64,000 bases of DNA from a virus. Location of the stretch: IMG/VR virus record IMGVR_UViG_3300032136_000002, positions 38,281 to 102,280 of that record, one strand, 5' to 3'. The position numbers and the translations under genes were made by a program. Shown here piece after piece: positions 1 through 37,679 of this stretch. The notes under the pieces were generated by a model. It was not told the DNA's origin. It made no database searches and saw nothing but the letters and a program-made list of their open reading frames with translations. How positions within the stretch are numbered: position 1 is the stretch's first letter; the number at the start of each line of letters is the position of its first letter.

Positions 1-2
1 TG

Positions 3-3000
3 CAACCGTCCCAGGGTCGTCTTCTTCCCCCCGACCTGGGCTACATCGGTCACGTCCAGCTTTCCTTGTTTGACCGCCTTCTCAAGATCAGCTTGGTTGG
101 AAAACTTCAAGTTGGACTGCTTGCCTACCTCAGTCAGATTGTAGAGCCCGACTTGCATCTCTTTGATGGGCGTATAAGCGACTTTCCCAGAGGCGGGGGA
201 GAAAAGGATGTTCGACGGCTTCATCTTCTCCGCTTCTTCCACAGCCTCGTTTGTCATAGGAACAAACGCTGCCATGGTATCCCCGTCAAAGTCTGCACCA
301 TAAGAGCTGGTCACGAGCGGATGTATTTGAATTGCTTTGCCTTCAGTCAACCGAGGTTTGAAAGCTTGAACTCCGTGTTTGTGAAGAACGGGGTCGCGTT
401 TGAGCAACACTGGTCGCTGTTCAGCCGCGCGCTCAAGCGCCTTATTGGCGATGGCCGTATTCTGTTGGATCTCTTGTTTGGCCTGCATGGGAGTGAGGCC
501 AAAAGAATTACGGATTTCACGGACGACGAACGGCTTGTACATCTCCATCGCCGCTTTACGGGGAATGCCCACCTCATCCAAGCTGAGGGACGGCTCCGGC
601 ACGATGGTCGAGCGCATCGTCATGTCCTGCCGCTTCTTGATGAGTTTCCGCTGGTAGAACCCCGTCTTGGGGTTAGCCCCCGCGATGACGTCGAGGATGC
701 CGGGGTAGTCACGGTTGAGGGTACCTCCAAGACCAGTGAGGCTCTTCATCTCGTCATAGAGCTCGCGACGCAGTGGGGCCCGCTCTTCATCAGGGAGCCC
801 CTTGTGCATGGTGCGGAGCTTCTGGTTGGTCAGTGAGATGTGCTTGTAGAACTGGTTGACATCTTCAAACTGGATGGACCCATCGCCTGAAACGCTCATC
901 GGCCGCATGACGGGGGGCATGACCGGAACGTGCTTGGTCATGTACGCCTCAGTCGGCGAGAGCTTGGCTTTCTTCAAAGCGCTCAGATATTTGATACGCC
1001 GGTTGGCCTTGTTGAGCGGCGTGCCGCGGAGCTTCCCTATCCGCCCCCGTTCGGCCTCGAGCTCTTTGTCGATGTCCACATTCTTGAGCAGCCGACCGAC
1101 CGCACTCGGCCCGTACTGGGCCCCCTCAACGTCAGCATCCACCAACTTGCCGTCAGCGGTCACCCCTTTCTCACCATTGATAACCTTCTGGTACTCCTTG
1201 CGGTCCACCCCAGTGAGTGAGGAGATGGCCCCTTCGAACAGCGGGTTGGGCATGGGCTCGTGCAGCGTGATGTGGCTCCACTTCTTTCCCTCTGTCCCGC
1301 CCGTGGTCTCAGGGTCGAACAGCCCCCCCTTCTCTGGGTCGAGCGTCCCGGCCTTGACTGACTTGCCTCCGTCTTTGATGGCGCCTGAGCTCGTCTCGAG
1401 GACCTGCTTGTCCGTGAGCGGAAGGAGGTTGAGACTGTTGCCCTCCTTCTCGACGTTCACCCCGACCGTCTTGAGCATCCCCTCGAACTTTTTGAAGGCG
1501 AAGGTTGGTTTGGGTGGTGGAAGGAGCTCGCCGGCTTGCAAAGCACCCCAGAGTTCGTCGTTGTCACCGTGTTGACCTCGATCAGCTTTGTACGTGGCCA
1601 TCTCGCGAATATTGTGAACGGCGCCGTGAGATAGCAGGGAGTACAACTCCATCTGTCCCATGGCCTGCCCCCCGTGAGGGTGGCCCGACCGCGGGGCCAG
1701 GTTGCGGTCGTAGGAGGCCCGGGAACGGGCGGTCATCTTCTGGTCGACCTGGTGGTGGAGCTTCAACGTATACTGCTGCCCCGTCATGACGTTAGGAATC
1801 TCTTTGCCCGTCTTGGGGTCAATGAGGTTCTCCGTGTCAGAGAGCTCGGCCTTCTTCAGAGCGGCCTTCACCTCACCCCGCGCATCGTCGAGGGCGAAGT
1901 TCTGCACCTTGAAGGGCTTCCCTTCCTTCTCCGCTATCTTGCCGGCCGCCGTCTCGAGTATCTGGCCTACGTTCATCCGGCCCATGACGCCAAGCGGGTT
2001 ATGGAGGACCTGAATGGGTTTCCCGTCCTTGGTCTGAGGCATCTCTGAGTCAGGAGTCACACGAACGACAATCCCCTTGTTAGCGTGACGACTTACAATT
2101 TTGTCGCCAACTTGCGCGGGTTCCTCGGTCTTGACGTGAACCTTGACCCCGTCACGGGACTTGGTGACCTCGACGACCTCACCGGGGAAATCCTGGTCCC
2201 AGACCTGGCCCTTGTCGTCGTAAGTCCGAAGGAGGCTCTTGTGGATGCGGCCGAGGTCCATCTCCCCCTTGCGGACCACACGCTTGGTCATGCCGGCGAT
2301 GAGCGTGTCTCCGGGCTCCACCCGCTGGCCCACCTTGATGACTCCGTCGTCGCCGAGCTTCTCCTGCTGTTTCACCGTCATCCGCTGGGGGAAGTTGGCG
2401 ACGTAGGACTTCTTCCCCTTGAGCTCACCCTCGGCCTTGTGAAAGCCCTTCTTATACAGGTGTTCCGACGTGAGTTGGCGAGCTGCGGACTCACTGATGA
2501 CGATGCCGTCTTCGACGTTGTGCCCCTTAGCCGGGAGGTAAGCTACGCGGAGGTTGACGCCGGGAGCGTAAGTGCCTCCCTTCGAGAAATTCGTGTCGGC
2601 GATGAGCTGCCCCTCTTTCACTGTGTCGCCGACCTTCACTTGGGGCTCAGAGTTGAGGACCCCCTTTTTCTCGTTAAGCGGGTAGTTGTCGTAGATCGGA
2701 ACGTCTTTGACCTTCCCGTCTGCGCCCTTGATTTTGATCGAGTCCTTCTCGACGCCGACTACCTCCCCTGCAAGGGGAGCCGTTTGAGCGGTGAAGCTTC
2801 CCATCACGTCATCAAAGCTCTTGCCGCCCTGGACCGACTGGACTAGCGGGGCCTCCCGGTACTTGAGGGAGACGGCCTGCTCCTGGTGCCGCCCGCTCAT
2901 GGTCACCCGGTTCTGGGAGTTGTTCCCGAGGAAGGGGACCATGTTGAGGGGGAGTGAGAACATCTGGGCCGCCGAGGGCATGACGTAGTCAGCCTTCTTC

Positions 3001-4415
3001 ATCGAGGTGAGCCCCATCTTCCCCTCTTTGAGGCTGGCCTTAAGCTGGTCCCGCTTGGGGGTGGGCTTCCCGTCCTTCCCCCACGTCACCTCATCGGCCA
3101 TAACCACGACTTTCTCTTGTGCCGTGGCGGGGTCAACTCTCTCCACTTTCCCCGTTTTGGTGTTGTAGAGGGGGATGGTTATGCTACCCTTCTCTTTACG
3201 CATTCCAAGCGCAGTGTGAAGAGTTACGCCTGTCTTCGGACCTTCCGGAGTATGGAGGGGGTCTAGGAACCCCAGGTGTGAAGGGTCAACGAGCTTCACT
3301 TCCTCGGTGAGCTTGTGCTCACTCTGAATGCCTCCCTCGGTCCCAACGACGGTGGTCTTTTGCTGACCGCCCACCATAGCCACGGGGTTTGTGTCGTCGG
3401 CTTGGTTGGCCAGGGAGCTCTTGGCGAAGAATTGGTTGATGGGCCGGTTGAAGTAGTCCGTACCCACGATGTCTTTGATCTTGCCCTTGCGGTCCAGGTT
3501 GTTCAGAACCCGTCGCTCAATGATGGGCTTCTGCTCTTTGATGCGGTTCGAGATGAAGTCCTCAACCCCTTGGAGCTGCTTGAACTGAAGAGACTCCCGG
3601 TTGTCCGGCTCCCGCTCCCCCCGAGACACCTTCAAAAGGTTGGAGCTGGTTTCCATCATGGCCACTGGGCCCAACGTTTTTATGGGCTTACCGAGAGTCT
3701 TCTTGGTAACCTCCGGGTCGAGCTCAGCTCCCTCGAAGCGATCTCGAATCACCTGAGAGGCATCTTCAAAGGTGGTCGCCTTGGCCCGCGGGTTGATCTT
3801 TCCCGCCAGGCGGATGATGTCTTGCTCCACCTTCTTTTGGTCCACCTTGTTGGCAGCGAAGATTTCGCGACCCCACTTCTTCTCGAGGGCCTTATCCCCT
3901 ACGCCCAGGGCCTGCATGACGGAGTAAAGCGGGGGGTTGGACCCACCGATCCGCATCTTGAACTTCCGTTTGCCTGGGTCAAAATCAAGGTGGTAGGACC
4001 CACCCCTGATGTTGATTTGGCTCTCAAGCTCGCCGTTCTGCTTCACCCTCGAGTAGACCCCCGGTCGCAAAGTCCAGAGGTTGTCCGTCTGATACTCAGT
4101 CCCGTTGACGATGTACGAGTACCTGCGGGTGATTTGAGGTAGTGTGGCCACTCGCCTGGTCGAGGTATCAACTACTTTGCCCGTCTTGTTGTCGACTAAC
4201 TCGAAAGAAGCTTTGACGACTGATCCAAAGGTACGCCCGGCCAGCTTCTTCTCTTTCTGCGTCCGAACGTCATGCGTGTCTGGCTCGTCTGTGACCTCAA
4301 CCCCGGTCACCCTGAGAGTCTGAGCACTTCCTTTGATAGGGAATGACTGATGAATCGCCTTGGTCACCCGTTCTTTGAGAGCTTCTTGGCTCTCTCGCGG
4401 GTCAAGTCGCGCCAT
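3..4415 (-). CDS. rpoBC: Fused beta-beta' DNA-directed RNA polymerase (double-psi beta-barrel type); 3' end lies outside the window
   Basis: Hand-translated from ATG 4415 (GAGG RBS upstream). One frame holds beta motifs LPQITRRYSYIVNG, DPSHLGFLDPLHTPEG, VPFLGNNSQNR, GHNVEDGIVISES, GDKIVSRHANKG, NPLGVMGRMNVGQ, KLHHQVDQKMTAR and GGQAMGQME. It then continues into beta' motifs PEKGGLFDP, VPVMPPVMRP, LLKRDPVLHK and catalytic YGADFDGDTM (273-302). The track lists no ORF in this frame, consistent with no stop inside the window. Confidence 0.95.
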   Translation of the reverse strand, partial: MARLDPRESQEALKERVTKAIHQSFPIKGSAQTLRVTGVEVTDEPDTHDVRTQKEKKLAGRTFGSVVKASFELVDNKTGKVVDTSTRRVATLPQITRRYSYIVNGTEYQTDNLWTLRPGVYSRVKQNGELESQINIRGGSYHLDFDPGKRKFKMRIGGSNPPLYSVMQALGVGDKALEKKWGREIFAANKVDQKKVEQDIIRLAGKINPRAKATTFEDASQVIRDRFEGAELDPEVTKKTLGKPIKTLGPVAMMETSSNLLKVSRGEREPDNRESLQFKQLQGVEDFISNRIKEQKPIIERRVLNNLDRKGKIKDIVGTDYFNRPINQFFAKSSLANQADDTNPVAMVGGQQKTTVVGTEGGIQSEHKLTEEVKLVDPSHLGFLDPLHTPEGPKTGVTLHTALGMRKEKGSITIPLYNTKTGKVERVDPATAQEKVVVMADEVTWGKDGKPTPKRDQLKASLKEGKMGLTSMKKADYVMPSAAQMFSLPLNMVPFLGNNSQNRVTMSGRHQEQAVSLKYREAPLVQSVQGGKSFDDVMGSFTAQTAPLAGEVVGVEKDSIKIKGADGKVKDVPIYDNYPLNEKKGVLNSEPQVKVGDTVKEGQLIADTNFSKGGTYAPGVNLRVAYLPAKGHNVEDGIVISESAARQLTSEHLYKKGFHKAEGELKGKKSYVANFPQRMTVKQQEKLGDDGVIKVGQRVEPGDTLIAGMTKRVVRKGEMDLGRIHKSLLRTYDDKGQVWDQDFPGEVVEVTKSRDGVKVHVKTEEPAQVGDKIVSRHANKGIVVRVTPDSEMPQTKDGKPIQVLHNPLGVMGRMNVGQILETAAGKIAEKEGKPFKVQNFALDDARGEVKAALKKAELSDTENLIDPKTGKEIPNVMTGQQYTLKLHHQVDQKMTARSRASYDRNLAPRSGHPHGGQAMGQMELYSLLSHGAVHNIREMATYKADRGQHGDNDELWGALQAGELLPPPKPTFAFKKFEGMLKTVGVNVEKEGNSLNLLPLTDKQVLETSSGAIKDGGKSVKAGTLDPEKGGLFDPETTGGTEGKKWSHITLHEPMPNPLFEGAISSLTGVDRKEYQKVINGEKGVTADGKLVDADVEGAQYGPSAVGRLLKNVDIDKELEAERGRIGKLRGTPLNKANRRIKYLSALKKAKLSPTEAYMTKHVPVMPPVMRPMSVSGDGSIQFEDVNQFYKHISLTNQKLRTMHKGLPDEERAPLRRELYDEMKSLTGLGGTLNRDYPGILDVIAGANPKTGFYQRKLIKKRQDMTMRSTIVPEPSLSLDEVGIPRKAAMEMYKPFVVREIRNSFGLTPMQAKQEIQQNTAIANKALERAAEQRPVLLKRDPVLHKHGVQAFKPRLTEGKAIQIHPLVTSSYGADFDGDTMAAFVPMTNEAVEEAEKMKPSNILFSPASGKVAYTPIKEMQVGLYNLTEVGKQSNLKFSNQADLEKAVKQGKLDVTDVAQVGGKKTTLGRL

Positions 4416-4444
4416 GTGATCCTCACTGTGGTGTGCCTATACGG

Positions 4445-4473
4445 ACTCTAAGGTAGCGAAATTTATAAGTCAA
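4445..4473 (-). promoter_or_regulatory. sigma70-like promoter for the RNA polymerase gene
   Basis: TTGACT-N17-TAGAGT on the minus strand, about 30 nt upstream of ATG 4415. Confidence 0.55.
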
Positions 4474-4489
4474 TGCCCGATATAAGAAC
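4455..4489 (+). promoter_or_regulatory. Candidate phage-specific promoter AGCGAAA-N19-TATAAGAAC
   Basis: The same bipartite motif occurs at 11863-11896; both copies precede the first gene of a plus-strand unit. Confidence 0.4.
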
Positions 4490-4529
4490 TATGGTGCGAG
4501 ACCGTTAGCTCATCGGTCTCTAGGAAGGT

Positions 4530-4745
4530 ATGAGTCAATTGAATCCCAATGGAAGTGGAACCTCTAGCGAGACCGTGTTCTCTGATGCCCTTAGTCTGTT
4601 TGAGGGCGTTGTGGAGAGCATGGTGACTGAATGTTGTAGTGGATCTGGTCTCCTCGGTGAAGTCGGATCGGGAGTAGGCCCTTCAACCTGTTTGGCCGAT
4701 GACATCGATATCGTGTCGTCGTCCCTATCGGATGAGGGGGAATGA
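4530..4745 (+). CDS. Small acidic hypothetical protein
   Basis: ORF track; AGGAAGG upstream of ATG. Confidence 0.4.
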   Translation: MSQLNPNGSGTSSETVFSDALSLFEGVVESMVTECCSGSGLLGEVGSGVGPSTCLADDIDIVSSSLSDEGE

Positions 4746-4748
4746 GCG

Positions 4749-4847
4749 ATGCTTCTCTTCTTCATCAGTGTTTTCGTAGCGACAGTGTTGTCGTGTATTA
4801 CGGAGACTATGGCGGATTGGGAAGCGGGTCGCTTTTGGTGCTGGTAG
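4749..4847 (+). CDS. 32-aa hydrophobic peptide (MLLFFISVFVATVLSCITETMADWEAGRFWCW)
   Basis: Hand translation; GAGGGGG upstream; one hydrophobic segment; followed by a hairpin. Confidence 0.35.
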   Translation: MLLFFISVFVATVLSCITETMADWEAGRFWCW

Positions 4848-4864
4848 GCACCTGAGGCGGTAAC

Positions 4865-4902
4865 AGGTGGCCCTAACCTCACGGGAGGGGCCACCTCCTT
4901 TT
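4865..4902. terminator. Hairpin between convergent genes
   Basis: AGGTGGCCC...GGGCCACCT stem followed by CCTTTT. Confidence 0.5.
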
Positions 4903-7900
4903 AGATTGCCGCCGCTTCCGGACCTCGACGAGGAGCTCTCCCTTCAGGAAGAGGGGCTCCGGCACTTCGAGGACCTTGTTGATTCCCACCGCGGGTGAGC
5001 AGCTCAACGACCATGTCGGCGAGTTGCGGGCTCTGTTGCGCTATCTGTTGCAACGCCACCTGCTGATGCTCTGGGGGCATCTGAGCCATCTGCTGCGCCA
5101 TCTGCTGAGCAATCTCAGGGAGAGGTTGCTGTGGAGGAGGTTCAGCCGCTGGCTGCCCCGGAACACCGCCCTGTTGCACCCCCTCCAATGCCTCGCCAGG
5201 CGCCGCGTCTGTCATCCCCTGCTGAGCTTGCATTTGCTCACGCTGCATGACAGCTTGGCTCCGCGCCTGGTACTTGCTCATGACCACCTGGGCTTCGCCT
5301 TGAACCTCGGCCTGGGCCAACTGGTTCTTTTTTAGCGTCTCCATGCGCCGGGCCGCCTCGGCCATCATGAGCTCGTCCTCCTTCTCCGGAGAGAGGTCGG
5401 CGTCGAGCAAGAGTGTGGAGTCTGACACCTTCTGCGCCTGGTTGTACTGGAAGAGAAGCGCTTTGCGCTGCAGGTCGTCGGCCATCTTGAAGGGCTTGAA
5501 CCTCACTCGAGGCTCGGGCCACTCGAGGTACGTCGCGACGTTCTTCACGATGAAGTGGCGCAGGACATGGGTCATGTCCGAGACATAGCGAATGAAGTGA
5601 TTCTCCAGCATCCGCATCGACACGTTGCTTCCACTAAAGGAAAGCCCTCCGGTGATAAACTCTCGAGGGACGTGCATGCCGGCGATGATGTGGTCGTTGA
5701 GCATCTGCATCTCCTGGAAGGTCAGCAGTGCTCGGCCGTCTCCTCCAATGACCTGATGCCCCAAGGGCAGCGGCATGATGGGGACGTAGGCCCGGTCCTT
5801 GCGCCACCGATTGATCTCAGCTTGCACGTGGTCCCGCCATTTTCGAAGGTCAATGGAGCTGTTATGAGTCGCCACCCCAGCCACACAAAACGATTTGTCC
5901 CCACGCACCTGGAAGCCGCGGACCACGTCAACTCCTTCAATAGCAACTTTGCTCCGAACCCTGAGGTACACATAGCCGTCTCGGAAGAACCCGCACCGTG
6001 AGTGCCCTGGAGGTGCTTCTGGCCCTCGGCCCAACAGGTGGGCCAGATAGTCCGCTTGAGTGCCGTTCACGTTCACCTGGTAGTACGGCAGTTTGGCTAT
6101 CTCGTCCTCTCGCGGGATAGTGCATTGGGTCGTAGGGAGCACTTCGTGGGAGAGCAAGATGGTGCGCGCATCCATCGCAAGTTGAGGGCTTACGGTCTTC
6201 AGCCCAATACGCCTCGTCGCAGTGCTGAAGTCACACCCATCCCCGAGTAACAACCCCTCGAGAGCACTGAGCGCTATGGGGCCTGGTGCCTCCATAATGA
6301 ATCGAGGGAGCCGTTTGCGCTGCGCCCCTCGGCCACATGCGAATAGGACACTGCTGAGGATGACGTCATTGACTACGTACTCAATGCACCCCGGACCATG
6401 AGCGAAGGTCCCACTCGGTTTATGGGCTAGTCCAGCAAGCGCCTGGTCGAGCCTTTGACGTAGGTGGGGTTTGTCGATGTCTAAGGCTAGTGCGGCAAGC
6501 GCGCCCTTGGTCGACCCTTGTGCTGCGTAGAGGCCTATGACAAAGGCCAAGTCACTGGTCACCGGGAGATACCGAGGGGTGCGCTCAATCTGCCCTTGCT
6601 GCACAAAAGCAGCGCGGGCGTTGTTGAACTCCTCAATAGACCACCCCCGATCAGCCAAAAAGTCCATCCGGGGGGAGGCCTGCCGGGACAACCCCACCCG
6701 AGAAAAATCTGGGAGCCCCTCCTGCTCAAAATACTCATAGATTTCGGCTGACTGCTGGTTTATCCGACGATAAACCCAAGACTTAGTGGCTGCCCGCTCC
6801 GGGTTGTACTCCGCCAAATCAAGCTGTAACGCAGTCCACGTTGGCCGGTGGGTGGGATAGCAGACGTAGTCCTTCTCAGCCACATCCTTCGCCTCGACCC
6901 ATGAAGGCTCCCCCAAACTATCGTAACCACGCCATTCCCCAGGCACCCGTTTCACTGCCAATAGGGGGTGCCCTGCGGACAACGTAAAGGGGAAGGCCGT
7001 CAACGAAGCGGCAGTCACCTTGAATACCGGTTCCCCAACCTCAACAGGACGGTCAACTGCGGCCTCTACTTTTTCCCACCGACCCTTATGGGTACGGACA
7101 AAATCACCTTGATCCACTTCCCCCGCAGGTTTAATCCCCTTTCGTGTCTCGATCAGAGTGTCGTGAGTGACACAGTAAGGGTCTGCCTGAGCGGAACCAG
7201 CTGCAGGGTAAATGATAGACAGCGGGTAGATGCGCTCAAGGGCCACGGCCTCATTCGACTTTTTCAACACCTGAAGCAAGAACGCGTCTTTGAGCACTGG
7301 GAGGAGCATGGGGATACCCATCCCTGCATCCTTGGTCCCCGTGAGCATGCTTGGCCGCCGGAGGTGGCAGAAGTTCGTCTTGTAGAGCCGGAGCTGCTTC
7401 TGCTTGCGTACGGCGTCCAACACAATTTGAGGCATCACTTCTATCACGTGGGGCTTGCCCAGCATGATGTCGTTCTTGACCGACCGCGGTACCCGGAAGA
7501 AGTAACTGTCCTCTCCCGTAATGTCGTTGTGCACCACGGTGATGTCTTCCGGATTCCAGATAATCAGCTTGATGTCGCGAGGGCTCTTGATCTGAACATC
7601 ACGGACTTCAGCCTCGCCGCTCACCCCACACTCTGGACAGGGGTTGAGGACGAACTTGTGATGCTGGAATCTGTAAGTCGAATCTTTGATCGCTGTCCAT
7701 TGACCGCAAGAACCGCACTTCAGGTATTTCACGAACGGGTACTGGATAGAAATCATTGAGTTCCCGTACGCGTAGTAGTACAGACCTAAATCGAGGAAGA
7801 ACTTCCGAATCTGGAGAGTGTCTTCGAGGAACTCCTCCCACAACTCTGTGACTTCTTTAGTCTTGTGCTCCACTACAATATCGGTGAGCGGGTACTCAGC

Positions 7901-8107
7901 CATTTTGCTGATGACTGCTGAGACTGTTGGGTTGGTCAGGTAGAAGTAGCGGCACCATCGGAACAGCCGACGGATAGTGTCCGGAAGGTAGGTCTGGGCA
8001 ACATCGAAGAACGGGGATGGGTAGGAAAGTCCACTCGAGCTGCCGCCTGTAATGCGGCTGCGCGCAGGGCTGAAACGCTCGAAATTCCCTTGGTTATAGT
8101 CAAACAT
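4901..8107 (-). CDS. Portal protein (probable), intein-containing, with Zn-ribbon insert and Gln/Pro-rich tail
   Basis: Portal-like pattern (NPTVSAVISKMAEYP; YYAYGNSMIS; IIAGMHVPREFITGG; LENHF...RVRFKPFKMADD); spliced length about 630 aa; position in the head module. Confidence 0.75.
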   Translation of the reverse strand: MFDYNQGNFERFSPARSRITGGSSSGLSYPSPFFDVAQTYLPDTIRRLFRWCRYFYLTNPTVSAVISKMAEYPLTDIVVEHKTKEVTELWEEFLEDTLQIRKFFLDLGLYYYAYGNSMISIQYPFVKYLKCGSCGQWTAIKDSTYRFQHHKFVLNPCPECGVSGEAEVRDVQIKSPRDIKLIIWNPEDITVVHNDITGEDSYFFRVPRSVKNDIMLGKPHVIEVMPQIVLDAVRKQKQLRLYKTNFCHLRRPSMLTGTKDAGMGIPMLLPVLKDAFLLQVLKKSNEAVALERIYPLSIIYPAAGSAQADPYCVTHDTLIETRKGIKPAGEVDQGDFVRTHKGRWEKVEAAVDRPVEVGEPVFKVTAASLTAFPFTLSAGHPLLAVKRVPGEWRGYDSLGEPSWVEAKDVAEKDYVCYPTHRPTWTALQLDLAEYNPERAATKSWVYRRINQQSAEIYEYFEQEGLPDFSRVGLSRQASPRMDFLADRGWSIEEFNNARAAFVQQGQIERTPRYLPVTSDLAFVIGLYAAQGSTKGALAALALDIDKPHLRQRLDQALAGLAHKPSGTFAHGPGCIEYVVNDVILSSVLFACGRGAQRKRLPRFIMEAPGPIALSALEGLLLGDGCDFSTATRRIGLKTVSPQLAMDARTILLSHEVLPTTQCTIPREDEIAKLPYYQVNVNGTQADYLAHLLGRGPEAPPGHSRCGFFRDGYVYLRVRSKVAIEGVDVVRGFQVRGDKSFCVAGVATHNSSIDLRKWRDHVQAEINRWRKDRAYVPIMPLPLGHQVIGGDGRALLTFQEMQMLNDHIIAGMHVPREFITGGLSFSGSNVSMRMLENHFIRYVSDMTHVLRHFIVKNVATYLEWPEPRVRFKPFKMADDLQRKALLFQYNQAQKVSDSTLLLDADLSPEKEDELMMAEAARRMETLKKNQLAQAEVQGEAQVVMSKYQARSQAVMQREQMQAQQGMTDAAPGEALEGVQQGGVPGQPAAEPPPQQPLPEIAQQMAQQMAQMPPEHQQVALQQIAQQSPQLADMVVELLTRGGNQQGPRSAGAPLPEGRAPRRGPEAAAI
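5861..7174 (-). mobile_element. Intein (438 aa) with LAGLIDADG homing endonuclease domain
   Basis: Starts CVTHDTLIET; block B LSAGHPLL; LAGLIDADG-like helices FVIGLYAAQG and LEGLLLGDG; ends SFCVAGVATHN followed by Ser(+1). Confidence 0.93.
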
Positions 8108-9018
8108 CAGCCCTGCGTCCCTTTCCCAGTGAGGCGGCCTATGCCGGCACCTACGCGCTTGCCGACGGAGCCAAGAGTTTCACCTAGAGCGAAATTGCCT
8201 ACGACGGGAAGTGCACCACCTGCGACGTATCCTGCACTGCTGCCGATAGCCTGTCCCACTACTGCCGGGTCACCCGTACGGACGCCTTCAGCTATAGCTG
8301 GGGCGGCCATGATACCCGTCATCCCAATACCGAGCGGCCCTTGTACGCGCCCGATGTTTTTTAGAGTCTCAAGGCGTTTGCCCTTGGTCGCAAACCCCCG
8401 CATTACCCCGGGAATGGAAGTCAGCCCCTCTTGGGCTGCCCGTTGCATCTCAGGGGACACCTCCGTACCTGGAGCCAGCATGCGCTTGTAGGCCTCTTCA
8501 CGCTCCTTGCCCGTCCAACCCCTACCTCCGAAACGACTCTTGCCTGCGACAATCTGCGCCTGCGTTCGAGGGGCGTACCCTGTCAGAGAGTGGGCCTGTC
8601 GTTGAACCGCCCGAGTTACCTGCTGTCGGCCGGCCCGCGTTGCCAACTGCCCCCCAGCCAAACCTGCCGCACCCCCCAGAATGGCCCCCCGCACGGCCCC
8701 GGCTCCCCGAGCTCCCTCCGGGGCAGTTGCGGCACCGTGCGCGGCTCCAACGCCTGCCCCCATCAGTGCGCCCGCCCCACGCCCCGTCCACGCTTCACGA
8801 ACATGGGCTTTCCCAAAATGTTCGCCAACCCCTTTCACCCCAGGGATTTTGCTGACCAGCTGGCCTACAGGACCTGAGGCTCGCCGCAACGTGTCTGACG
8901 CACCGCCTAGTGCTCGGCCGACCGTGCGGAGGCCAGGCAAGAACGCCTCTTTCTGTAGAGCGTCGTCCCAGGTCTCTACAAGGGCCTGACTGAACTCGGC
9001 GCTATTGAGTTTTTGCAT
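8107..9018 (-). CDS. Gly/Ala-rich basic protein, possible internal head or ejection protein
   Basis: Glycine-zipper segments (GAGALMGAGVGAAHG); N-terminal LQKEAF motif; stop overlaps the portal start. Confidence 0.6.
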   Translation of the reverse strand: MQKLNSAEFSQALVETWDDALQKEAFLPGLRTVGRALGGASDTLRRASGPVGQLVSKIPGVKGVGEHFGKAHVREAWTGRGAGALMGAGVGAAHGAATAPEGARGAGAVRGAILGGAAGLAGGQLATRAGRQQVTRAVQRQAHSLTGYAPRTQAQIVAGKSRFGGRGWTGKEREEAYKRMLAPGTEVSPEMQRAAQEGLTSIPGVMRGFATKGKRLETLKNIGRVQGPLGIGMTGIMAAPAIAEGVRTGDPAVVGQAIGSSAGYVAGGALPVVGNFALGETLGSVGKRVGAGIGRLTGKGTQG

Positions 9019-9772
9019 GGAAGGCCTCCAGTTGCTCTCTCAACGTCTTCGTCATCCCACGCGCATACTCGAAAGCCACGAGGAGTTTGCCCACTTGGAC
9101 GTCGACGACACTTTCTTCCAGGTAGTCCTCTCGATCATACCCTTTGGAGTAGACCTCGTGAAACCGCTTGCGCACGGGCTCAGGATCGAAGACGGGAACC
9201 TTTTTCAGCGCCTTCTGCGGCGCACCGCAGGTATCGCACTCCTGGTTGTCGTCATCGGTGTCGATGTTGCCGCACCTCGTGCACCGGTACTCCGCCCGTG
9301 CTGCGTAGGGTTGAGCAAAGTGAATTGGGGGCGGCGTGTAGAACACCCCCTGCTCGAGGGAGCAGGCCGCCGCATACCGTGCAACCTCCTCTGCGAAGAA
9401 ATGCTCCTTGGCCTGGTTCATGACCTGGACACCGGCTATGAGCTGCGCCAGCGTGGGCATATCCAGCACTTTGAAATCCGGTATCTCCCCGTTAAGGCCA
9501 GAGATAGTGAGGGTGAACACCTCCCACTGGGTCCACGGGGTATTGACCAAGTGCATCGTCTTGATGGCGTTGATACGGTTACGGTTCTGCGCGCTCACCT
9601 CCACCCCAAACTCACTTTTGATCTCAGACCAGATGGTAGAGGGCTCCCAGGTCAACCACTCAGGCTTGAAAGCGTCGAGCAAGATGACATCGAGGGCCAG
9701 CGGATGCGCATTGGGATTGGTGAACATCAAACGCGTAGTGGAATCCCCTTCAGCCACCAGGGCCTCCTTCAA
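9002..9772 (-). CDS. Hypothetical protein with Zn ribbon
   Basis: CTRC...CDTC; coupled to neighbouring genes. Confidence 0.7.
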   Translation of the reverse strand: MKEALVAEGDSTTRLMFTNPNAHPLALDVILLDAFKPEWLTWEPSTIWSEIKSEFGVEVSAQNRNRINAIKTMHLVNTPWTQWEVFTLTISGLNGEIPDFKVLDMPTLAQLIAGVQVMNQAKEHFFAEEVARYAAACSLEQGVFYTPPPIHFAQPYAARAEYRCTRCGNIDTDDDNQECDTCGAPQKALKKVPVFDPEPVRKRFHEVYSKGYDREDYLEESVVDVQVGKLLVAFEYARGMTKTLREQLEAFHAKTQ

Positions 9773-9814
9773 TTTGAGGTGTCCTCTAGAGATACCTGAA
9801 GATTGAGGGAAGTG

Positions 9815-10570
9815 CTATGCGAGGACACCGGTGAGCGACTGGGAGCGCACGCCGTCACTCGAGAAGGTGATGGCTACGAGGTCACCAACGGCACGGGCAT
9901 CGGTCTCTGCGGTGAGGTCGGGCACGGTCACAGTGCAGGCCGTCTCGGTCAGAGCGGCTCCGCCGTTGGCGCCAGTGGTGTTGGCCGGCAGACACTCCAC
10001 GCCGCTGACCCAACAGGTCCACCCCTCGCCGGTCCCGCCCGTCAGCGCGGTGGCTGCGGTCACCACGGGGGTTCCCGCGCCGCCGCCGTTGCAGGTCAGA
10101 TAGCCATCCGAGTCCGCCGCGTTGGCGTTGACCGCGGTGGCTATCTGGTCGGCGGTCGAGACACCAGCCTCTACCGTAATGACAAAAGCGTTCCCAGTCT
10201 TGGCCACAGCTTCGGAACCCGCCGTTCCACCGTCCGCGATTGCGACGGTGAAGTCATTGCCCGCAGTACCAGGCTTGAGCGCTGTGAACACGAGCTCAGC
10301 GGTCCCCGTGCCAAGGGTCAAGGCCGCAAAGTCTTGACCTTGTACCATGTTTGAGCCCTTGAGCACGATGTCACCGCCGGCTGCGGCCGGGTGACCGCCA
10401 TCGACCCACTCGAGCTCGGAAAAGGTGCCGGAGCGCCCCTCGAGCACGGAGAAGCCGTTCTCGATGTCACTGCGCAGGTCCCCTATTTCACCGGGAACGC
10501 CGCCTTTGCCATTGGACACCAGATGGGGCCGCCGTGGCGCTTCCCCTCCAAAACTCTTGCTGATAGTCAT
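9815..10570 (-). CDS. Virion structural or decoration protein
   Basis: Gly/Thr/Ala-rich beta-type sequence; STADQIATAVNA module; GAGGAGG RBS. Confidence 0.6.
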   Translation of the reverse strand: MTISKSFGGEAPRRPHLVSNGKGGVPGEIGDLRSDIENGFSVLEGRSGTFSELEWVDGGHPAAAGGDIVLKGSNMVQGQDFAALTLGTGTAELVFTALKPGTAGNDFTVAIADGGTAGSEAVAKTGNAFVITVEAGVSTADQIATAVNANAADSDGYLTCNGGGAGTPVVTAATALTGGTGEGWTCWVSGVECLPANTTGANGGAALTETACTVTVPDLTAETDARAVGDLVAITFSSDGVRSQSLTGVLA

Positions 10571-10583
10571 CGTTCCTCCTCAC

Positions 10584-11795
10584 TCACGTTGTTGTCTGGG
10601 CTTGCGCCAACTGAGCGATCAAACGCTTTTGAACCAGCGGCATTGATTCAAAAATCGCCACCGGACTCTTTGTCATCTCTTTGACCATATCGTCGCCGAA
10701 GTGCTGCAAGAGCACGTCACGGTTCTTCGCCGTCAGCTCGCGCAGACTCCGCTCTTCGAGGACCATGTTACCCTCAGTCCACTTCCACTCAGCCACCTTG
10801 GCCACGCCAAAGGTAGTCTCCCATGGGTCCGGGAGCTGAGAGTCCCACAGTCGGTCGGCATGGTTCATGATGTCCAACTGCGCTAAGACCTCGGCGAAGG
10901 TGTCGGGCTCAAGAGAAGCCTTCTTTTCGAGCAACTCGTCGAGCAGCGACACGCTCTCACTCGCACCATCGCGCCATAGCCGCTTGCGCAAGTTGACAGC
11001 AACCTTGATACCCCCGATGTCACGATACCCATCAGCGCCATAGTCCGAGGCAGTCTTGGACAGAGGGTACCCAATGGCATGGGCCCGAGCCGCGAGCTTC
11101 TCGCAGAAGCTTCGTCGGGTACGCGGGTGGAGGTGACGGTAGTTCTGGTCAAAGTAATCAGCGGCCTCTTTGACCTGACGGTAACTGATCAGAGGAAACT
11201 GTCGATCCCCCTGATCAGAAATCAAGGCATACCACCCATCGTCGTACTCCTCGGCTTCTTTGACAACATCCTCTCCCGTCACGTCGATGTAGGGGTTGGA
11301 GATGGTGTCATCCACAGCCAGCTTGCGCGCTGGCGTGTAGGCCGTGATGGGCATCTGACGGCTCCCCACGAGCTCACTATTTTTCTCGTGGCGCTCACCA
11401 GGAACCACTTTGAGTTCCGCACCATCAGACTTGATTAGCGTCTTGGTGGCCAACTTGATCACCGAGAGCGGAGGCTCAATTTCGTAAGCTCGACAGGCTT
11501 TAAGCAAGTTGGCCGCCACCTTGGTCTGCGCCACCGGAGGGAGTGAGTCCTTCGTGTGGTGGAAATACGCGCAGGAGAGCAAGGCGTGACCCACGTCATG
11601 GCAAGCGAACTTACGCAGTTGCTCATCGCCGTTAACCAACACCCCGGCGAAGGCGTTATCGGGGAGACGGGCCTGCTCCTCAAGGCCCAGCATCTCCAGT
11701 GAAGCGAGCTCATCCGGCAGGGCCGCCCCTGTCTTGGTGAGCAGCGCACCGTTGTCGTCGTAGATATCGAGAACAACCCCAGCGAATTTGTTCAT
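10584..11795 (-). CDS. Head-module protein with two DUF6582-like repeats
   Basis: RLPDNAFA...RKFACHD...YF and DDGWYA...RQFPL...VKEAADYF; many KxA motifs. Confidence 0.6.
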   Translation of the reverse strand: MNKFAGVVLDIYDDNGALLTKTGAALPDELASLEMLGLEEQARLPDNAFAGVLVNGDEQLRKFACHDVGHALLSCAYFHHTKDSLPPVAQTKVAANLLKACRAYEIEPPLSVIKLATKTLIKSDGAELKVVPGERHEKNSELVGSRQMPITAYTPARKLAVDDTISNPYIDVTGEDVVKEAEEYDDGWYALISDQGDRQFPLISYRQVKEAADYFDQNYRHLHPRTRRSFCEKLAARAHAIGYPLSKTASDYGADGYRDIGGIKVAVNLRKRLWRDGASESVSLLDELLEKKASLEPDTFAEVLAQLDIMNHADRLWDSQLPDPWETTFGVAKVAEWKWTEGNMVLEERSLRELTAKNRDVLLQHFGDDMVKEMTKSPVAIFESMPLVQKRLIAQLAQAQTTT

Positions 11796-11840
11796 GCCTT
11801 CTGCTCCCTGGCAGGCGTCCTAGCTGCGGTGAATGCAGTC

Positions 11841-11869
11841 AGCTTACCACGAGACGCAAGCAAGCGAAA
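11841..11869 (-). promoter_or_regulatory. Extended -10 type promoter for the head operon
   Basis: TTTCGC-N17-TAAGCT with TGn directly before the -10. Confidence 0.35.
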
Positions 11870-11896
11870 AGTTGGACCTGCCGCAGGTACAAGAAC
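11863..11896 (+). promoter_or_regulatory. Candidate phage-specific promoter AGCGAAA-N18-TACAAGAAC
   Basis: Heads the replication operon; second copy at 4455-4489. Confidence 0.4.
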
Positions 11897-11928
11897 CCCG
11901 AAGCCAGAAACCTTAGGAGGTTAGTACC

Positions 11929-12417
11929 ATGGCTCTGATTGCAACGAAACCTGCTATGCGCTGTTTCGCCGATGTCGATACATTTGACCCGGCCAAAGAT
12001 CGGTGCGCCGCATGCCACTTCCAGGATGCATGCGAGAAACAAATCGACGAAGACAACGTTGACGAACTCGAGCAAGAGGACAGCGAAGACGAGCTGGACG
12101 GCGTCAGTCGTTTAGCTGGGAGGGCGAATCCGTTTGCCTCCGCAGTGAGCGGATTCGCTCCAGGGGTAACGCAATATCACACAGTGACTCCGACAGCACC
12201 GTATTCCCCGCCCAGTCCCAACCTCTCCTGTGAAGGCGTGTCGCCTGTAGTTCAGGTCCCACGGCAAGAGGGTGAAGAAGTCTGGGGTCGGCTGGCCAAG
12301 AACGTTGGCCTTGGTGCTTTAGCCAGGGCCCTGGTTGAAGCGAGTCTGGTCGCAGAGGACGAGCGAACGCGACCGGTGGGTCAGTGGGGCCGAGTGGATC
12401 GACCACGAAAGAAATAA
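11929..12417 (+). CDS. Hypothetical protein, N-terminal 4-Cys motif and acidic linker
   Basis: AGGAGG RBS; C-x11-C-x2-C-x5-C. Confidence 0.75.
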   Translation: MALIATKPAMRCFADVDTFDPAKDRCAACHFQDACEKQIDEDNVDELEQEDSEDELDGVSRLAGRANPFASAVSGFAPGVTQYHTVTPTAPYSPPSPNLSCEGVSPVVQVPRQEGEEVWGRLAKNVGLGALARALVEASLVAEDERTRPVGQWGRVDRPRKK

Positions 12418-12442
12418 CTAAGAGGGTGATTCATCGTCCGGG

Positions 12443-14365
12443 GTGGAGTACATATTAAGCATGACGCTTCGATTCCCCATCCTGGACGATGAAAAAGCCT
12501 ACCTTGGAACATGGTTGTTCCTGCCCAAGAAGTACATTGCGGAACAGGTCCTCCGCAGTTCATTGACACTGCCCATTGATCAAACCCGTACAATGGTCTG
12601 TTTTCAGGATCATCCCAACCACTTAGCTGTACCCCGATGCCTAATCCCGCGAGCTGAGTTGGAAACTCAGTTCCCTGTGGTGGACCTGATTCCCGCGTCT
12701 CAAGAGCACACCGTCCAGTCGGACATCACCCTCGACATGATGCGGCCCGACAGGAGCGTTCAGCATGACAGTGTTGAGGCCATGATCGAAGCCGGAGGCG
12801 GTATCCTCAACCTCAGCTGCGTAGCAGGAGACACTATCCTGGGCCTCAACCGAGGAGGCAAAGGGTTTTCCATGCCGATCTCCACGGTCTACGAGCGATT
12901 GCGTGGAGGGAGGTACGCTTGGGATACGTCGATACCTACAAAAATCCGAAGTTTGAAGGAGAACTGGGTTGGGCTGCATCGACTCGTAGATGTAGTTTGT
13001 ACCGGAGTCAAAGAAACCGTTGTGTTACGACTAACCAACGGTAAAACCGTTACCCTAACTCCAGACCACCGTGTCCTAACGTCTCAAGGGTGGGTACCTG
13101 CTGGTGAGTTACATTGCGGGGACCTTGTAGTGACCGACGCTACCGCCCCCTCATGCAAAGATTCAAAAATCGAAGACGCGCACTGCGCCCACCACACCGC
13201 CGGATACGTCGGATTCGGTTACGGCATGCCTTTTCAAGTTGAGGTTGAAAGCGTCACCCCAGGGCCTCAAACTCAGGTCTACGACGTAATCTGTGACGAC
13301 CCTCATCACAACTTCGCAGGTAACGGAATAATTCTGCACAATTGCGGAATGGGAAAAACCGTAATCGCCCTCGAGCTCGTCGCCAGGCTGAAAAAGAAAA
13401 CCCTCATCGTCGTCAAGGGTGACGGACTGATTGGGCAGTGGCGGGACCAAATTCAAGACCGCCTGAAATTCCCCACTGAGCTTGGCCTCATTCAGGGGCC
13501 GGTCAACTCTTGGAAGTGGGAGGGGTGCGCTATCACCCTTGCTTCCCTCGACACGCTCGCACGTCACCACGCCAATGTGCCTGCCGAGCTACGACGCAGC
13601 ATGGGCGTAGTGGTGTGGGACGAGTGCCACTCCGTTGCTGCGATGAGCTACAGCAAGACTGCGGCCTTGTTCCCCGGCCAGCGCTTTGGCCTCACCGCCA
13701 CAGTGCACCGGGAGGACGACATGGAGAGCGTCTTCCTCTGGCACATCGGGCCCGTCGCTTTCAGCGACCTCACTCAAGACCTCATCCCGACGGTCACCCT
13801 TCTCCCCTCACCCATCGACCTGCGGTTGAACGACCCCTACGTCTACAGGCAGGTCTGCGATAAGCGGCGAGAGCTCAGCCACACCAAGTTGATGAACTAC
13901 GTCGCCAACCTCGAACAGGAGATCAACTTCGTTGAGCGGCATCTCAGAGAAGCAGTCAACGCCGGGCGGCGCATCCTCGCCATCAGTTGGTCGAAGGACC
14001 AGCTCAACACCCTGCATAAGCGCTTCCCCCAAAGCGGCCTCATCACTGGGGACGTCAAGGGGGCCACTGCTCGACAGCGGGCTTTGTCTGACCACCAACT
14101 CACCTTCGGTATCGCCCAGCTTGCTCGAGAGGCCCTTGACGAGGCCGAGCTGGATACACTGTTCATCCTAACAGAGTACCGCTCAGCCGGTATGCTCCAG
14201 CAATCGGTTGGGCGAATTCAGAGGCTCCTCAAAGGCCGCAAGAAGAGCCCTCGCGTTGTGATCATCCAACACAACCGCGTGCAAGGCATCAGTCATCGAG
14301 CCCGCCATATGATCCGGTATTTCCGTGCCCAAGGCTTCACTGTAGAAGAGGCACCTCAACGATAG
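12443..14365 (+). CDS. Superfamily 2 DExH helicase (XPB/UvsW-like), intein-containing
   Basis: Spliced Walker A LSCGMGKT; WDECH; GLTAT; QQSVGRIQR. The start may be ATG 12461. Confidence 0.92.
   Translation: MEYILSMTLRFPILDDEKAYLGTWLFLPKKYIAEQVLRSSLTLPIDQTRTMVCFQDHPNHLAVPRCLIPRAELETQFPVVDLIPASQEHTVQSDITLDMMRPDRSVQHDSVEAMIEAGGGILNLSCVAGDTILGLNRGGKGFSMPISTVYERLRGGRYAWDTSIPTKIRSLKENWVGLHRLVDVVCTGVKETVVLRLTNGKTVTLTPDHRVLTSQGWVPAGELHCGDLVVTDATAPSCKDSKIEDAHCAHHTAGYVGFGYGMPFQVEVESVTPGPQTQVYDVICDDPHHNFAGNGIILHNCGMGKTVIALELVARLKKKTLIVVKGDGLIGQWRDQIQDRLKFPTELGLIQGPVNSWKWEGCAITLASLDTLARHHANVPAELRRSMGVVVWDECHSVAAMSYSKTAALFPGQRFGLTATVHREDDMESVFLWHIGPVAFSDLTQDLIPTVTLLPSPIDLRLNDPYVYRQVCDKRRELSHTKLMNYVANLEQEINFVERHLREAVNAGRRILAISWSKDQLNTLHKRFPQSGLITGDVKGATARQRALSDHQLTFGIAQLAREALDEAELDTLFILTEYRSAGMLQQSVGRIQRLLKGRKKSPRVVIIQHNRVQGISHRARHMIRYFRAQGFTVEEAPQR
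12818..13342 (+). mobile_element. Mini-intein (175 aa) in the helicase Walker A motif
   Basis: CVAGDT start; LTPDHRVLT block B; VYDV...HNFAGNGIILHN followed by Cys(+1); too short for an endonuclease. Confidence 0.93.
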
Positions 14366-14380
14366 CAATTAGGAGTAGTT

Positions 14381-15115
14381 ATGGATCAAACAGATGCGAG
14401 CTCCTACTTGAGTCACCTCGACTGGGAGCTCGCGTGGTGCAAATGTACGCTGTGCCCTGAACTAGCCAAGCACCGCACCTATGTCATTCCCGGTTGGGGC
14501 AACCCAAAATCCAACATCATGCTGGTCGGGGACAAGCCGGACGAAGAGGACGACGCAGCGGGTTACCCCTTTGTTGGCCGAGTAGGGAACATCCTCCGTG
14601 TGCTCCTCTACTACTACGCCGGTCTGTCCGACCATGAGTACTTCCTCGACTACGTCGTGATGTGCCGTACGGCGCGCGTGGCCGGGGGAGTGCTCAAACC
14701 CCGAGAGCCCAAAGCCGAAGAGGTCAAGAACTGCCAGGAACGGCTTCAGGGCGCCATCTACACCGTCGACCCCACCATCATCGTCGCCCTGGGCCCTCTG
14801 GCCCTGCGGGCGCTGACCGGTGAGGCCGGCGGCATCACAAAGACCCGTGGGTCAGTGTTCACTGCCAAAATCCCCGGCGTGCTCACTGAATCCATCATGT
14901 ACCCCGTACTCGCCACCTACGCCCCCAGCTACCTCGCGGTCAACACAAGCAAGCGAGAAGTAGCTAATGGGCTCTGGGACCAAATGAAAGCCGACTTGCG
15001 ACTGGCAACTCGGCTCAGCGACATAATGAACGAGAAATACTACGGAATCCCCCGGCCAGACCGGGAAGCTCTTGTCGAACAGAGGAAGGAAGAAGCCCGT
15101 GCACAAGATGAATGA
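14381..15115 (+). CDS. Family-4 uracil-DNA glycosylase-like protein with substituted catalytic motifs
   Basis: CTLC...MCR...KNC Fe-S cysteines; GYPFVGRVG; IIVALGPLA. Confidence 0.85.
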   Translation: MDQTDASSYLSHLDWELAWCKCTLCPELAKHRTYVIPGWGNPKSNIMLVGDKPDEEDDAAGYPFVGRVGNILRVLLYYYAGLSDHEYFLDYVVMCRTARVAGGVLKPREPKAEEVKNCQERLQGAIYTVDPTIIVALGPLALRALTGEAGGITKTRGSVFTAKIPGVLTESIMYPVLATYAPSYLAVNTSKREVANGLWDQMKADLRLATRLSDIMNEKYYGIPRPDREALVEQRKEEARAQDE

Positions 15116-15530
15116 AAAGCGTGTTCAGCTCGCCCAGCAGCGCTACGAAGAGACCCGGGAGGCCCGAGACACCTTCTGGGTAGAGAACGCGGAGGTACTC
15201 GAACGCTATCAAGAGCTGTGCGAGCTGAACAACATGGCGCTCAAGCGCCTTGACCAAGCTTGCAGGGAGACCAAGGTCAGTGCAGGCCCGATGAAAGTAC
15301 GCATCGCCCAACACCCGGTCTATGACGTGGACTACCTGGAGAATCTGTTCTCCACTCAGCCCGAGGTGTGCAAACAGCTCATCTCGGTGACCAAGAAAGT
15401 GAACCGGCCCTACTTTGAGAAACTGGCTAACCAAGGCTGCTTTACCGAAGAGACTCTCGGCCGCGCCATCACGCGTGTGGAGGAAAAGGTTCAGCTCATC
15501 GGAGCCCCTAAGCCTACAATTCTTCAATGA
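15108..15530 (+). CDS. Hypothetical protein
   Basis: ORF track frame; ATG overlaps the upstream gene end. Confidence 0.7.
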   Translation: MNEKRVQLAQQRYEETREARDTFWVENAEVLERYQELCELNNMALKRLDQACRETKVSAGPMKVRIAQHPVYDVDYLENLFSTQPEVCKQLISVTKKVNRPYFEKLANQGCFTEETLGRAITRVEEKVQLIGAPKPTILQ

Positions 15531-15877
15531 AAATCAAACACCACATCGAAATCACGATCAAAGGGAAGGAGCCGTTTGTCTTGCCCCAAGAGATACCGAA
15601 ATGGGTTGAAGAGCTCAAAGGTCACGTGGAGTCACTGGTTGGCGACGGGAAGGCCCAAATCTCCAGGAGCCGCCAATTTGGCTTGGCCACTGACTTTTCC
15701 CGAGTCAAAGTGTCCGGGCACTTTGGGGTTACCCTGACGTGCAATCAGGACATCGAAACGATGAAGATGGCTGCTGACCTCGCCGGCTACATCGCTGACA
15801 CCATTGTCTTTGAGGAAGACTACGAGACGATGACCAACGTTTTGAGGCACTACAATGTTGAGCAACAAGCCAAGTAA
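15527..15877 (+). CDS. Hypothetical protein
   Basis: ATGA overlap with the previous gene. Confidence 0.7.
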   Translation: MKIKHHIEITIKGKEPFVLPQEIPKWVEELKGHVESLVGDGKAQISRSRQFGLATDFSRVKVSGHFGVTLTCNQDIETMKMAADLAGYIADTIVFEEDYETMTNVLRHYNVEQQAK

Positions 15878-16178
15878 AATTCGCGGGGTAGCCTGCACCA
15901 AGATTGAGATGAACATTCACCCCGCCCACGGGGCCGCAGTCGAGGTGAGCTACGTGCTACACACTGAGGCCGGGAGAGCCGTGGCCGAGGGGAAGATGAG
16001 TGGGCCCTGGCCACAGGAAGTCGCTACTGCTGTGGACACACTCGTGAAATCAGTAGAGGGCACGATATTGAATAGTATATTTGGAGGTGAGACAAATGAA
16101 CCCGATTTTGGAGGGAGCACACACTCAGAGGGCAATCGTTCCGCTCTCTTTGGAGCTCGAGTCCCAACCCGAGATTAA
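15855..16178 (+). CDS. Hypothetical protein
   Basis: ORF track; GAGG upstream; operon context. Confidence 0.6.
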   Translation: MLSNKPSKIRGVACTKIEMNIHPAHGAAVEVSYVLHTEAGRAVAEGKMSGPWPQEVATAVDTLVKSVEGTILNSIFGGETNEPDFGGSTHSEGNRSALFGARVPTRD

Positions 16179-17190: not shown

Positions 17191-17194
17191 GTCG

Positions 17195-17237
17195 AGGGGA
17201 GCGGTGGGCCCGACCTGCCGCTCCCCTTCTGTCTTCT
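17195..17237 (+). terminator. GC-rich hairpin, weak terminator or mRNA stabiliser
   Basis: AGGGGAGCGG / CCGCTCCCCT stem followed by a pyrimidine run. Confidence 0.55.
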
Positions 17238-17250
17238 GAGGAGGTGTGAT

Positions 17251-18648: not shown

Positions 18649-18826
18649 ATTGACGTCCTCCCTCGCCTAAAGGCGAGGGATTCTTGAAAGGAAGCAACTT
18701 TGGTTATTAGTCACAACCTATCAAGATGGTTCACGTTTCACCGAGACGCGCAGCGTCGAGGGGAAGCCTCGCCGATGTCTTACCGTCTCTCCGCGTGCTG
18801 CTGGGGCCCGCCCGGCCCCCAGCAGC
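18630..18826 (-). ncRNA. TnpB-type omega-RNA (reRNA) scaffold plus flank-derived guide
   Basis: ACGCGGAGAGACGGTAAGAC...CGTCTCGGTGAAACGTGAA core with nested stems, right-end hairpin, TCAA, then guide TTCAGTGTGCTCGGGTTACC. Confidence 0.7.
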
Positions 18827-18918
18827 GTTCTATCACGAGCGAAGCGCTTTACAACCCAAAAGGAAGGCGCGCTTTCCTCCCCCGGCTAAAGCCGGGGGTC
18901 TCCAGCGCGCAAAATTAG
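18650..18918 (-). mobile_element. Non-autonomous miniature IS200/IS605 element (269 bp, no tnpA or tnpB)
   Basis: Minus strand: left end GAGA-CCCCCGGC-TTTA-GCCGGGGG; right end GAAT-CCCTCGCC-TTTA-GGCGAGGG-AGGACG-TCAA; target TCAT directly 5' of the left end; no target duplication. Confidence 0.88.
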
Positions 18919-19932: not shown

Positions 19933-19933
19933 A

Positions 19934-37670: not shown

Positions 37671-37679
37671 GATGCCTCG

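Follow-up and report, generated by a model that had tools for sequence, protein, structure and literature searches.

A single open reading frame encodes both large RNA polymerase subunits

The DNA analyzed here is a window of 64,000 nucleotides, bases 38281-102280 of the 102,280-bp linear IMG/VR virus record IMGVR_UViG_3300032136_000002 (parent contig G000), whose completeness CheckV estimates at 56%. One end of the window carries, on the minus strand, a gene for a DNA-dependent RNA polymerase (RNAP) in which the counterparts of the bacterial beta and beta' subunits follow each other in one open reading frame (ORF). The ATG lies at window position 4415 and the frame exits the window at base 3. 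An initial annotation made from the sequence had proposed extending the contig to obtain the C-terminus, and on the parent contig it was found: beyond window base 1 the ORF extends for 1,707 nucleotides (568 codons and the stop) to G000 36576. The full ORF, G000 36576-42695, thus encodes 2,039 amino acids in a stop-free frame.

Pfam analysis placed Rpb2_3, Rpb2_6 (residues 585-903, E = 5e-54) and Rpb2_7 in the first half of this frame and Rpb1_1 followed by Rpb1_2 (residues 1314-1398, E = 6e-28) in the second half, and beta' chains of the PDB match the protein at E = 1e-105. The domain order and the 2,039-codon frame confirm the earlier claim that beta motifs run into beta' in one frame. The gene had also been described as hidden from the ORF track, which is correct: it is missing from the default ORF list for the sole reason that this minus-strand frame is open at the window edge. 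Table 1 lists the features of the locus.

Table 1. Features of the RNAP locus, with positions in the window.
Feature	Position	Strand	Basis or remark
Single-chain RNAP gene, first 1,471 of 2,039 codons	3..4415	-	ORF with Pfam beta and beta' domains in one frame
Beta-like module, residues 1 to ~993	1437..4415	-	Aligns with RpoB through residue 1340 of 1342
Beta-beta' junction, residues ~991-1005	1401..1445	-	Direct join without added linker
Beta' module, N-terminal part, residues ~994-1471	3..1436	-	Clamp helices, lid, rudder, catalytic double-psi barrel
Beta active-site lysines K772 and K780 (E. coli K1065 and K1073), RHANKG motif	2076..2102	-	Alignment
Site of the beta' N-terminal zinc ribbon (E. 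coli C70, C72, C85, C88)	1272..1325	-	Short loop GGLFDPETTGGTEGKKWSH instead
Catalytic loop GADFDGD	279..299	-	E. coli N458 replaced by Gly (G1373), codon GGT at 297-299
Stretch upstream of RNAP: hairpin, then TTGACT-17-TAGAGT	4416..4534	-	9 of 12 sigma-70 consensus matches; not above chance
Portal gene, directly upstream of RNAP	4901..8107	-	Homologous to Arash gp204 and D69_0259
Portal insert with intein hallmarks, ~438 residues	5861-7174	-	Begins with Cys (CVTHDTLI...), ends with ATHN followed by Ser

Anatomy of the single chain

Residue positions come from BLASTP and from a MAFFT alignment of the family with Salmonella RpoB and RpoC (1,342 and 1,407 residues), whose lengths equal those of the E. 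coli proteins, so that E. coli numbering applies. Over 2,002 aligned columns the protein is 28% identical to the two subunits. The beta module lacks RpoB segments 2-38, 215-357 (SI1), 934-1037 (SI2) and 1147-1188. At the junction, 18 residues of the beta' N-terminus are lost; the peptide FEGMLKTVGVNVEKEGNSLNLLPLTD corresponds to residues 977-1002 (window 1410-1487). The beta' module, which spans residues ~994-2039 of the full chain, is complete but trimmed like the beta module: it lacks the Cys4 zinc ribbon (64-88), the trigger-loop insert SI3 (950-1170) and the 29 C-terminal residues. A second zinc site with its four cysteines (C814/888/895/898) is kept, as are the bridge helix, lid, rudder and trigger loop residues M932, R933 and H936.

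The beta' clamp helices and the beta flap tip are the usual docking sites of sigma factors. Both are retained, the clamp helices being 7 residues shorter. An AlphaFold model covering residues 560-1500 (941 residues, with both barrels and the junction) reached a mean predicted local distance difference test (pLDDT) of 84 and a predicted template modelling score of 0.70, and matched bacterial beta' chains at E = 1e-34. The junction is ordered in this model (pLDDT 81-94).

Zinc ribbon deletion is family-wide in the alignment and includes the proteins of the cultured phages Arash and D69 (see below). In bacterial RNAP the zinc ribbon is a component of the RNA exit channel, and its loss therefore suggests that termination or antitermination may be handled differently. 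The rifampicin pocket carries the substitutions H526G, R529K and S531T, which suggests that the enzyme would be insensitive to rifampicin.

Active-site residues and inteins

In addition to the two beta lysines of the RHANKG motif, beta H888 aligns to the conserved E. coli H1237, beta' R425 is conserved, and the Asp triad D460/462/464 is present as D1375, D1377 and D1379. The residue that deviates is the first of the catalytic loop, where Gly takes the place of N458; its codon is two base changes away from AAY. Asn occupies this position in 114 of 120 family proteins, three have no intact ADFDGD motif, and Gly is confined to three proteins of this phage, namely P0001 (the window fragment), P0002 (the full ORF) and P0003 (a near-identical copy that bears an intein).

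P0003, a protein of 2,369 residues from another contig, has a 330-residue intein at the beta RHANKG motif; the present copy has none. In other relatives inteins stand directly after NADFDGD, and across the family inteins recur at catalytic motifs.

The one-chain arrangement is the normal state of a large phage family

Homologues were collected from contigs of JGI, ENA, Logan, Tara and NCBI. All of the best 120 contain beta and beta' Pfam domains in one protein; they measure ~2,040-2,100 residues, or more where inteins are present, and come from contigs of up to 215 kb. At E<=1e-30 a junction-only query of 201 residues matched 211 clusters (50% identity); at E<=1e-10 it matched 903. The junction is carried by at least 150 clusters, with nearly all of the 150 listed covering the query from end to end. 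It lies at residue ~930-950 in proteins of ~2,000-2,100 residues and further along in longer ones, most of which bear inteins. The same RNAP protein occurs in identical form on two contigs, with the intein-bearing copy on a third, and relatives with the canonical NADFDGD are 80% identical to it along its entire length. The frame is continuous across the junction, which recurs in hundreds of independent assemblies. We conclude that a one-chain beta-beta' polymerase is the normal state in a large phage family and not a one-off.

One relative, IMGVR_UViG_3300017987_000006 (G001), is a complete phage genome of 178,259 bp with direct terminal repeats and an RNAP that is 50% identical. Our contig is collinear with it over ~85 kb in inverted orientation; collinearity is lost in the contig's last ~8 kb.

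Relation to cellular polymerases

In a scan of 185,579 species genomes, the best 80 loci were all cellular rpoB-rpoC from many phyla, with 27-31% identity. Among these, all 64 loci in which both genes are complete encode the two subunits in separate ORFs. A phylogeny (FastTree, LG+gamma, 1,989 columns) comprised 30 single-chain proteins, the concatenated chains of Arash and of D69, and 27 bacteria. All 32 phage sequences grouped together with support 1.0. The stem of this clade, 1.37 substitutions per site, exceeds the mean depth of the bacterial clade (0.78); Arash and D69 are sister to the single-chain clade (support 1.0). The tree was computed without an archaeal outgroup and without Helicobacter, Wolbachia, mReC or phiKZ sequences and therefore shows non-nesting in the sampled bacterial phyla and not the root of the family. 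Within this scope, the RNAP is neither a captured host gene nor nested in a sampled bacterial clade. Of the two outcomes that the initial annotation had named as refuting it, the assemblies show no interruption of the frame and the tree shows no close nesting in a bacterial rpoBC clade. Together with the trimmed chain and the phage genes on its flanks, the low cellular identity upholds the initial description of a minimal, divergent viral RNAP.

Gene neighbourhood, cultured relatives and virion proteins

The RNAP gene sits between the portal gene and a baseplate-hub-like gene directly downstream of it. Other phage genes on the same contig encode TerL, baseplate-like and sheath-like proteins, a family-A DNA polymerase (PolA) and a helicase. 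The portal gene itself bears the intein-like insert of Table 1; the sequences flanking the insert align to Arash gp204 and D69_0259, and a Pfam search of the insert detected no family. A 119-codon ORF between portal and RNAP (window 4535-4894) was rejected as a gene: it is probably none because it is of low complexity and has no homology to the conserved small protein found at this place in Arash (gp205) or D69 (0260). The window contains no tRNA genes.

Further along the window, a superfamily-2 helicase (ResIII/DEAD; 12443-14365, plus strand) has an Intein_splicing domain at residues 183-300 and is a second intein-bearing gene. A 244-residue ORF at 14381-15115 (plus strand) matches the middle of a family-A DNA polymerase PHROG, and may be a split or duplicated polymerase fragment; the main PolA gene (678 residues, 21201-23237, plus strand) lies 6 kb away.

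A search of 50,697 phage records placed just four cultured phages in the family, namely Salmonella phage Arash and Vibrio phages D69, D181 and D148. The one-ORF form occurs in none of them. In these phages, chain 1 comprises beta and the N-terminal half of beta' (1,525 and 1,527 residues) and chain 2 the C-terminal half of beta' (606 and 609 residues). Between the genes for the two chains lie two small ORFs in D69 (positions 10543-11180 of its record), a homing endonuclease gene in D181 and D148, and nine other genes in Arash. Because small ORFs or a homing endonuclease occupy the break within beta', the gene maps suggest that the two-chain state may have arisen by insertion of a mobile element into a one-chain gene. 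The RNAP described here is 33% and 26% identical to the two Arash proteins, and the order of portal followed by RNAP is common to this phage, Arash, D69, D181 and D148.

For Arash, proteins of purified virions have been reported: Gp206 gave the most spectra (3,516), Gp216 gave 1,210, and the sigma factor Gp10 was detected with 100% coverage (PMC10585845). In that paper Gp206 and Gp216 are named beta and beta' subunits, and a fusion is nowhere mentioned (PMC10585845).

Sigma, alpha and omega subunits and promoters

The initial annotation had recognized no alpha, omega or sigma gene in the window, which holds for the whole 102-kb contig as well. G001 has one RNAP locus and gave no hit for alpha (PF01000) or omega (PF01192), while the controls were positive in 14 of 14 genomes. 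It does encode a sigma-like ORF of 263 residues, in which Sigma70_r3 scores above its curated cut-off and r2 and r4 match weakly, in the expected order. This protein is 29% identical to Arash gp10 (E = 2e-19), and its gene has the same setting as gp10 in Arash, a short way downstream of homologues of gp6 and gp8. The sigma-bearing region of G001 (56-63 kb) maps past the end of our contig. The earlier suggestion that the enzyme may assemble without such factors or borrow them stands in part: the G001 searches agree with an absence of alpha and omega, but the idea that the polymerase works without sigma is unsupported, because the contig is 56% complete and the G001 sigma-like gene maps beyond its end.

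A scan of window positions 1-20000 for the sigma-70 consensus gave 4 sites against 5.2 expected, i.e., no signal. A k-mer search of G001 revealed the element (T)CGGTATAAG in 13 copies, ~25-40 nucleotides before a ribosome-binding site and start codon. These sites cluster at 167-175 kb, often with CCGAAT or GAAAT ~17 nucleotides upstream. Our contig has two good copies, at G000 28234 (plus strand) and 7751 (minus strand), both outside the window, which share ~60 nucleotides including a CCACCCCC...GGGG hairpin.

Separately, a hairpin CCCTCGCC-TAAA-GGCGAGGG followed by ATTCTT lies at window 18660-18685 (plus strand); with up to 3 mismatches allowed, the window holds no second copy. Intergenic regions of the contig (4 regions) are enriched for the k-mers of this hairpin, which may be a shared terminator or regulatory stem-loop.

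Proposed role of the polymerase and alternative explanations

Taken together, the data are best explained if the gene encodes the phage's own RNAP core as a single chain; we give this reading a probability of roughly 0.7 (0.72). The enzyme is probably packaged in the virion and guided by a phage sigma factor. The components of the reading differ in strength. The domain and residue map makes it very probable that the ORF encodes an active, phage DNA-dependent RNAP core of the bacterial two-barrel type. By analogy with Arash, the enzyme is somewhat more likely to be packaged than not packaged, and the chances that it depends on sigma and is free of both alpha and omega appear about even. In this scheme, the covalent beta-beta' link would stand in for the scaffold otherwise provided by the alpha dimer, and the core might need neither alpha nor omega because of this replacement. 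A phage sigma factor related to Arash gp10, with its gene in the part of the genome that the contig lacks, would choose the promoters and dock on the clamp helices and flap tip that the core has kept. The virion would carry the enzyme, and probably this sigma factor as well, and deliver it by injection for transcription of the early genes. Since the relatives have one RNAP gene, the same enzyme may serve later gene classes too, as the sole phage RNAP throughout infection.

Several points weigh against this reading. The single-chain members are known here from their sequences, and virion packaging has been seen, by mass spectrometry, solely in the distant two-chain phage Arash (33% identity); for the present phage the evidence for packaging is the position of the gene between portal and baseplate-like genes. 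Searches with the Sigma70_r2, r4 and r4_2 hidden Markov models (HMMs) and with the G001 sigma-like protein found no sigma factor on this 56%-complete contig, and phmmer with Arash gp10 found no match there. To place the sigma gene in the missing part of the genome is an extrapolation, because collinearity with G001 ends before the contig does. Divergent alpha- or omega-like proteins, or use of the host alpha, could escape a Pfam search such as ours, and neither the k-mer nor the consensus scans tied a phage promoter class to the RNAP. Finally, the loss of N458 might alter activity or sugar selectivity. In bacterial RNAP the equivalent residue contacts the ribose of the incoming nucleoside triphosphate, and sugar discrimination may therefore differ in this enzyme.

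The same substitution is the starting point for a different explanation, in which the protein is catalytically impaired or has been repurposed, for example for a structural or ejection function. That an Asn found in nearly the whole family is replaced in this phage's own three proteins fits such a loss, but the other catalytic and structural determinants are all intact, there are no signs of decay, and identity to NADFDGD-bearing relatives remains at 80% over the full length. We regard it as quite improbable. Less probable still is that the fusion is an artefact of assembly or a frameshift, or a mis-binned bacterial rpoBC, for which only the general risk in metagenome assemblies speaks. An assembly artefact is excluded because the junction recurs, continuous, in at least 150 independent clusters and the identical protein is found on two contigs. 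Identity to cellular rpoBC is just 27-31%, with the phages in a clade of their own, and the flanking genes are of phage type and collinear with a complete phage genome with direct terminal repeats; junction recurrence, low cellular identity and collinear phage flanks effectively refute both forms of this explanation.

A more substantial alternative, which we nevertheless consider rather unlikely, accepts an active polymerase and places it outside the virion: it would be made after infection for middle or late genes only, while the host RNAP transcribes the early ones, and its gene location would reflect late co-expression. The gene does lie within a late-type structural operon, and the promoter-like GGTATAAG elements (13 in G001, two on this contig) may be promoters of the host type. 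Moreover, the Arash authors themselves note that abundant enzymes may merely carry over into virion preparations (PMC10585845). However, Arash Gp206 has the highest spectrum count of the virion and the sigma factor was detected as well (PMC10585845), and a separate virion enzyme is not apparent, the complete relative G001 having one RNAP gene.

Comparison with known polymerases

The closest known systems are those of Arash (Gp206 and Gp216 with sigma Gp10; PMC10585845), D69, D181 and D148, which share the clade, the junction, the zinc ribbon deletion and the gene position after the portal but have their RNAP on two chains instead of one. Fused rpoB-rpoC genes of Helicobacteraceae and Wolbachia, as cited in PMC7483510 (Zakharova et al. 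1999; Lane and Darst 2010), likewise join beta head-to-tail with beta' in one polypeptide. Those polymerases, however, are ordinary enzymes of the cell: they have alpha and omega, retain the zinc ribbon and every insert, and are nested in their bacterial lineages, whereas the phage RNAP is ~700 residues shorter than E. coli beta plus beta' and falls outside all sampled bacterial phyla. Compared with the canonical alpha2-beta-beta'-omega core, the phage has one chain, and its complete relative G001 has no alpha or omega hit.

Jumbo phages of the phiKZ/AR9 type (PMC7598289, PMC7824862) also have a two-barrel RNAP without alpha and omega, one form of which is packaged in the virion. Their beta and beta' are each divided over two or three polypeptides (four or five in total), in two paralogous sets and with no sigma; here there is a single ORF, and G001 combines one RNAP gene with a sigma-like partner. 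Similarity to these RNAPs is far lower, with only partial tblastn hits. The mReC Caudovirales (Weinheimer and Aylward 2020, PMC7481178) resemble our phage: they too are large tailed phages without a cultured member, and their bacterial-like beta and beta' branch deeply and are recognized by standard HMMs. By architecture, on which this comparison is based, they differ: every table row examined lists beta and beta' as different ORFs (PMC7481178), the group being defined by two ORFs of at least 800 residues each. The text of that paper mentions a fusion for crAss only (PMC7481178). The crAss-like gp66, YonO and the tape-measure-fused RNAP of P23-45 do hold both barrels in one polypeptide, and some are delivered by the virion. 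RNAPs of this type are too diverged for beta and beta' HMMs (PMC7481178), whereas the present RNAP matches Pfam and PDB beta' at E = 1e-54 to 1e-105 and has the full bacterial domain set.

A full-text literature search, the mReC and Arash papers and reviews of jumbo phages gave no description of a recognisable bacterial-type beta-beta' fusion in a phage. The "moraphage" system (PMC12619734) was considered as related and rejected, as those phages have no RNAP. Beta-beta' fusion itself is already known from Helicobacteraceae and Wolbachia.

Significance

The general view is that a bacterial-type RNAP must be assembled from several chains around an alpha dimer. Earlier phage versions were either split further (phiKZ, AR9) or diverged past recognition (crAss, YonO). 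The family described here is large and diverse; its members are uncultured, though they have cultured cousins in Salmonella and Vibrio, and they encode a fully recognisable beta-beta' enzyme as one chain. A 2026 review still describes phages below 200 kb with only single-subunit RNAPs (PMC13282480).

As a more speculative extension, which we put forward tentatively, the alpha- and omega-free one-chain core and a small sigma factor could form a self-contained two-protein system, both packed and injected, that would make phages of ~180 kb independent of host transcription from the first minute. The one-chain form would then be ancestral, the split in Arash and D69 secondary through mobile-element insertion, and the protein the smallest natural enzyme with the full bacterial RNAP architecture. 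If the enzyme is active alone or with a sigma factor, it would serve as a minimal and genetically simple model of how two-barrel polymerases assemble and evolve, might be used as an orthogonal transcription tool, and would add a new example of virion-delivered transcription below the 200-kb jumbo threshold.

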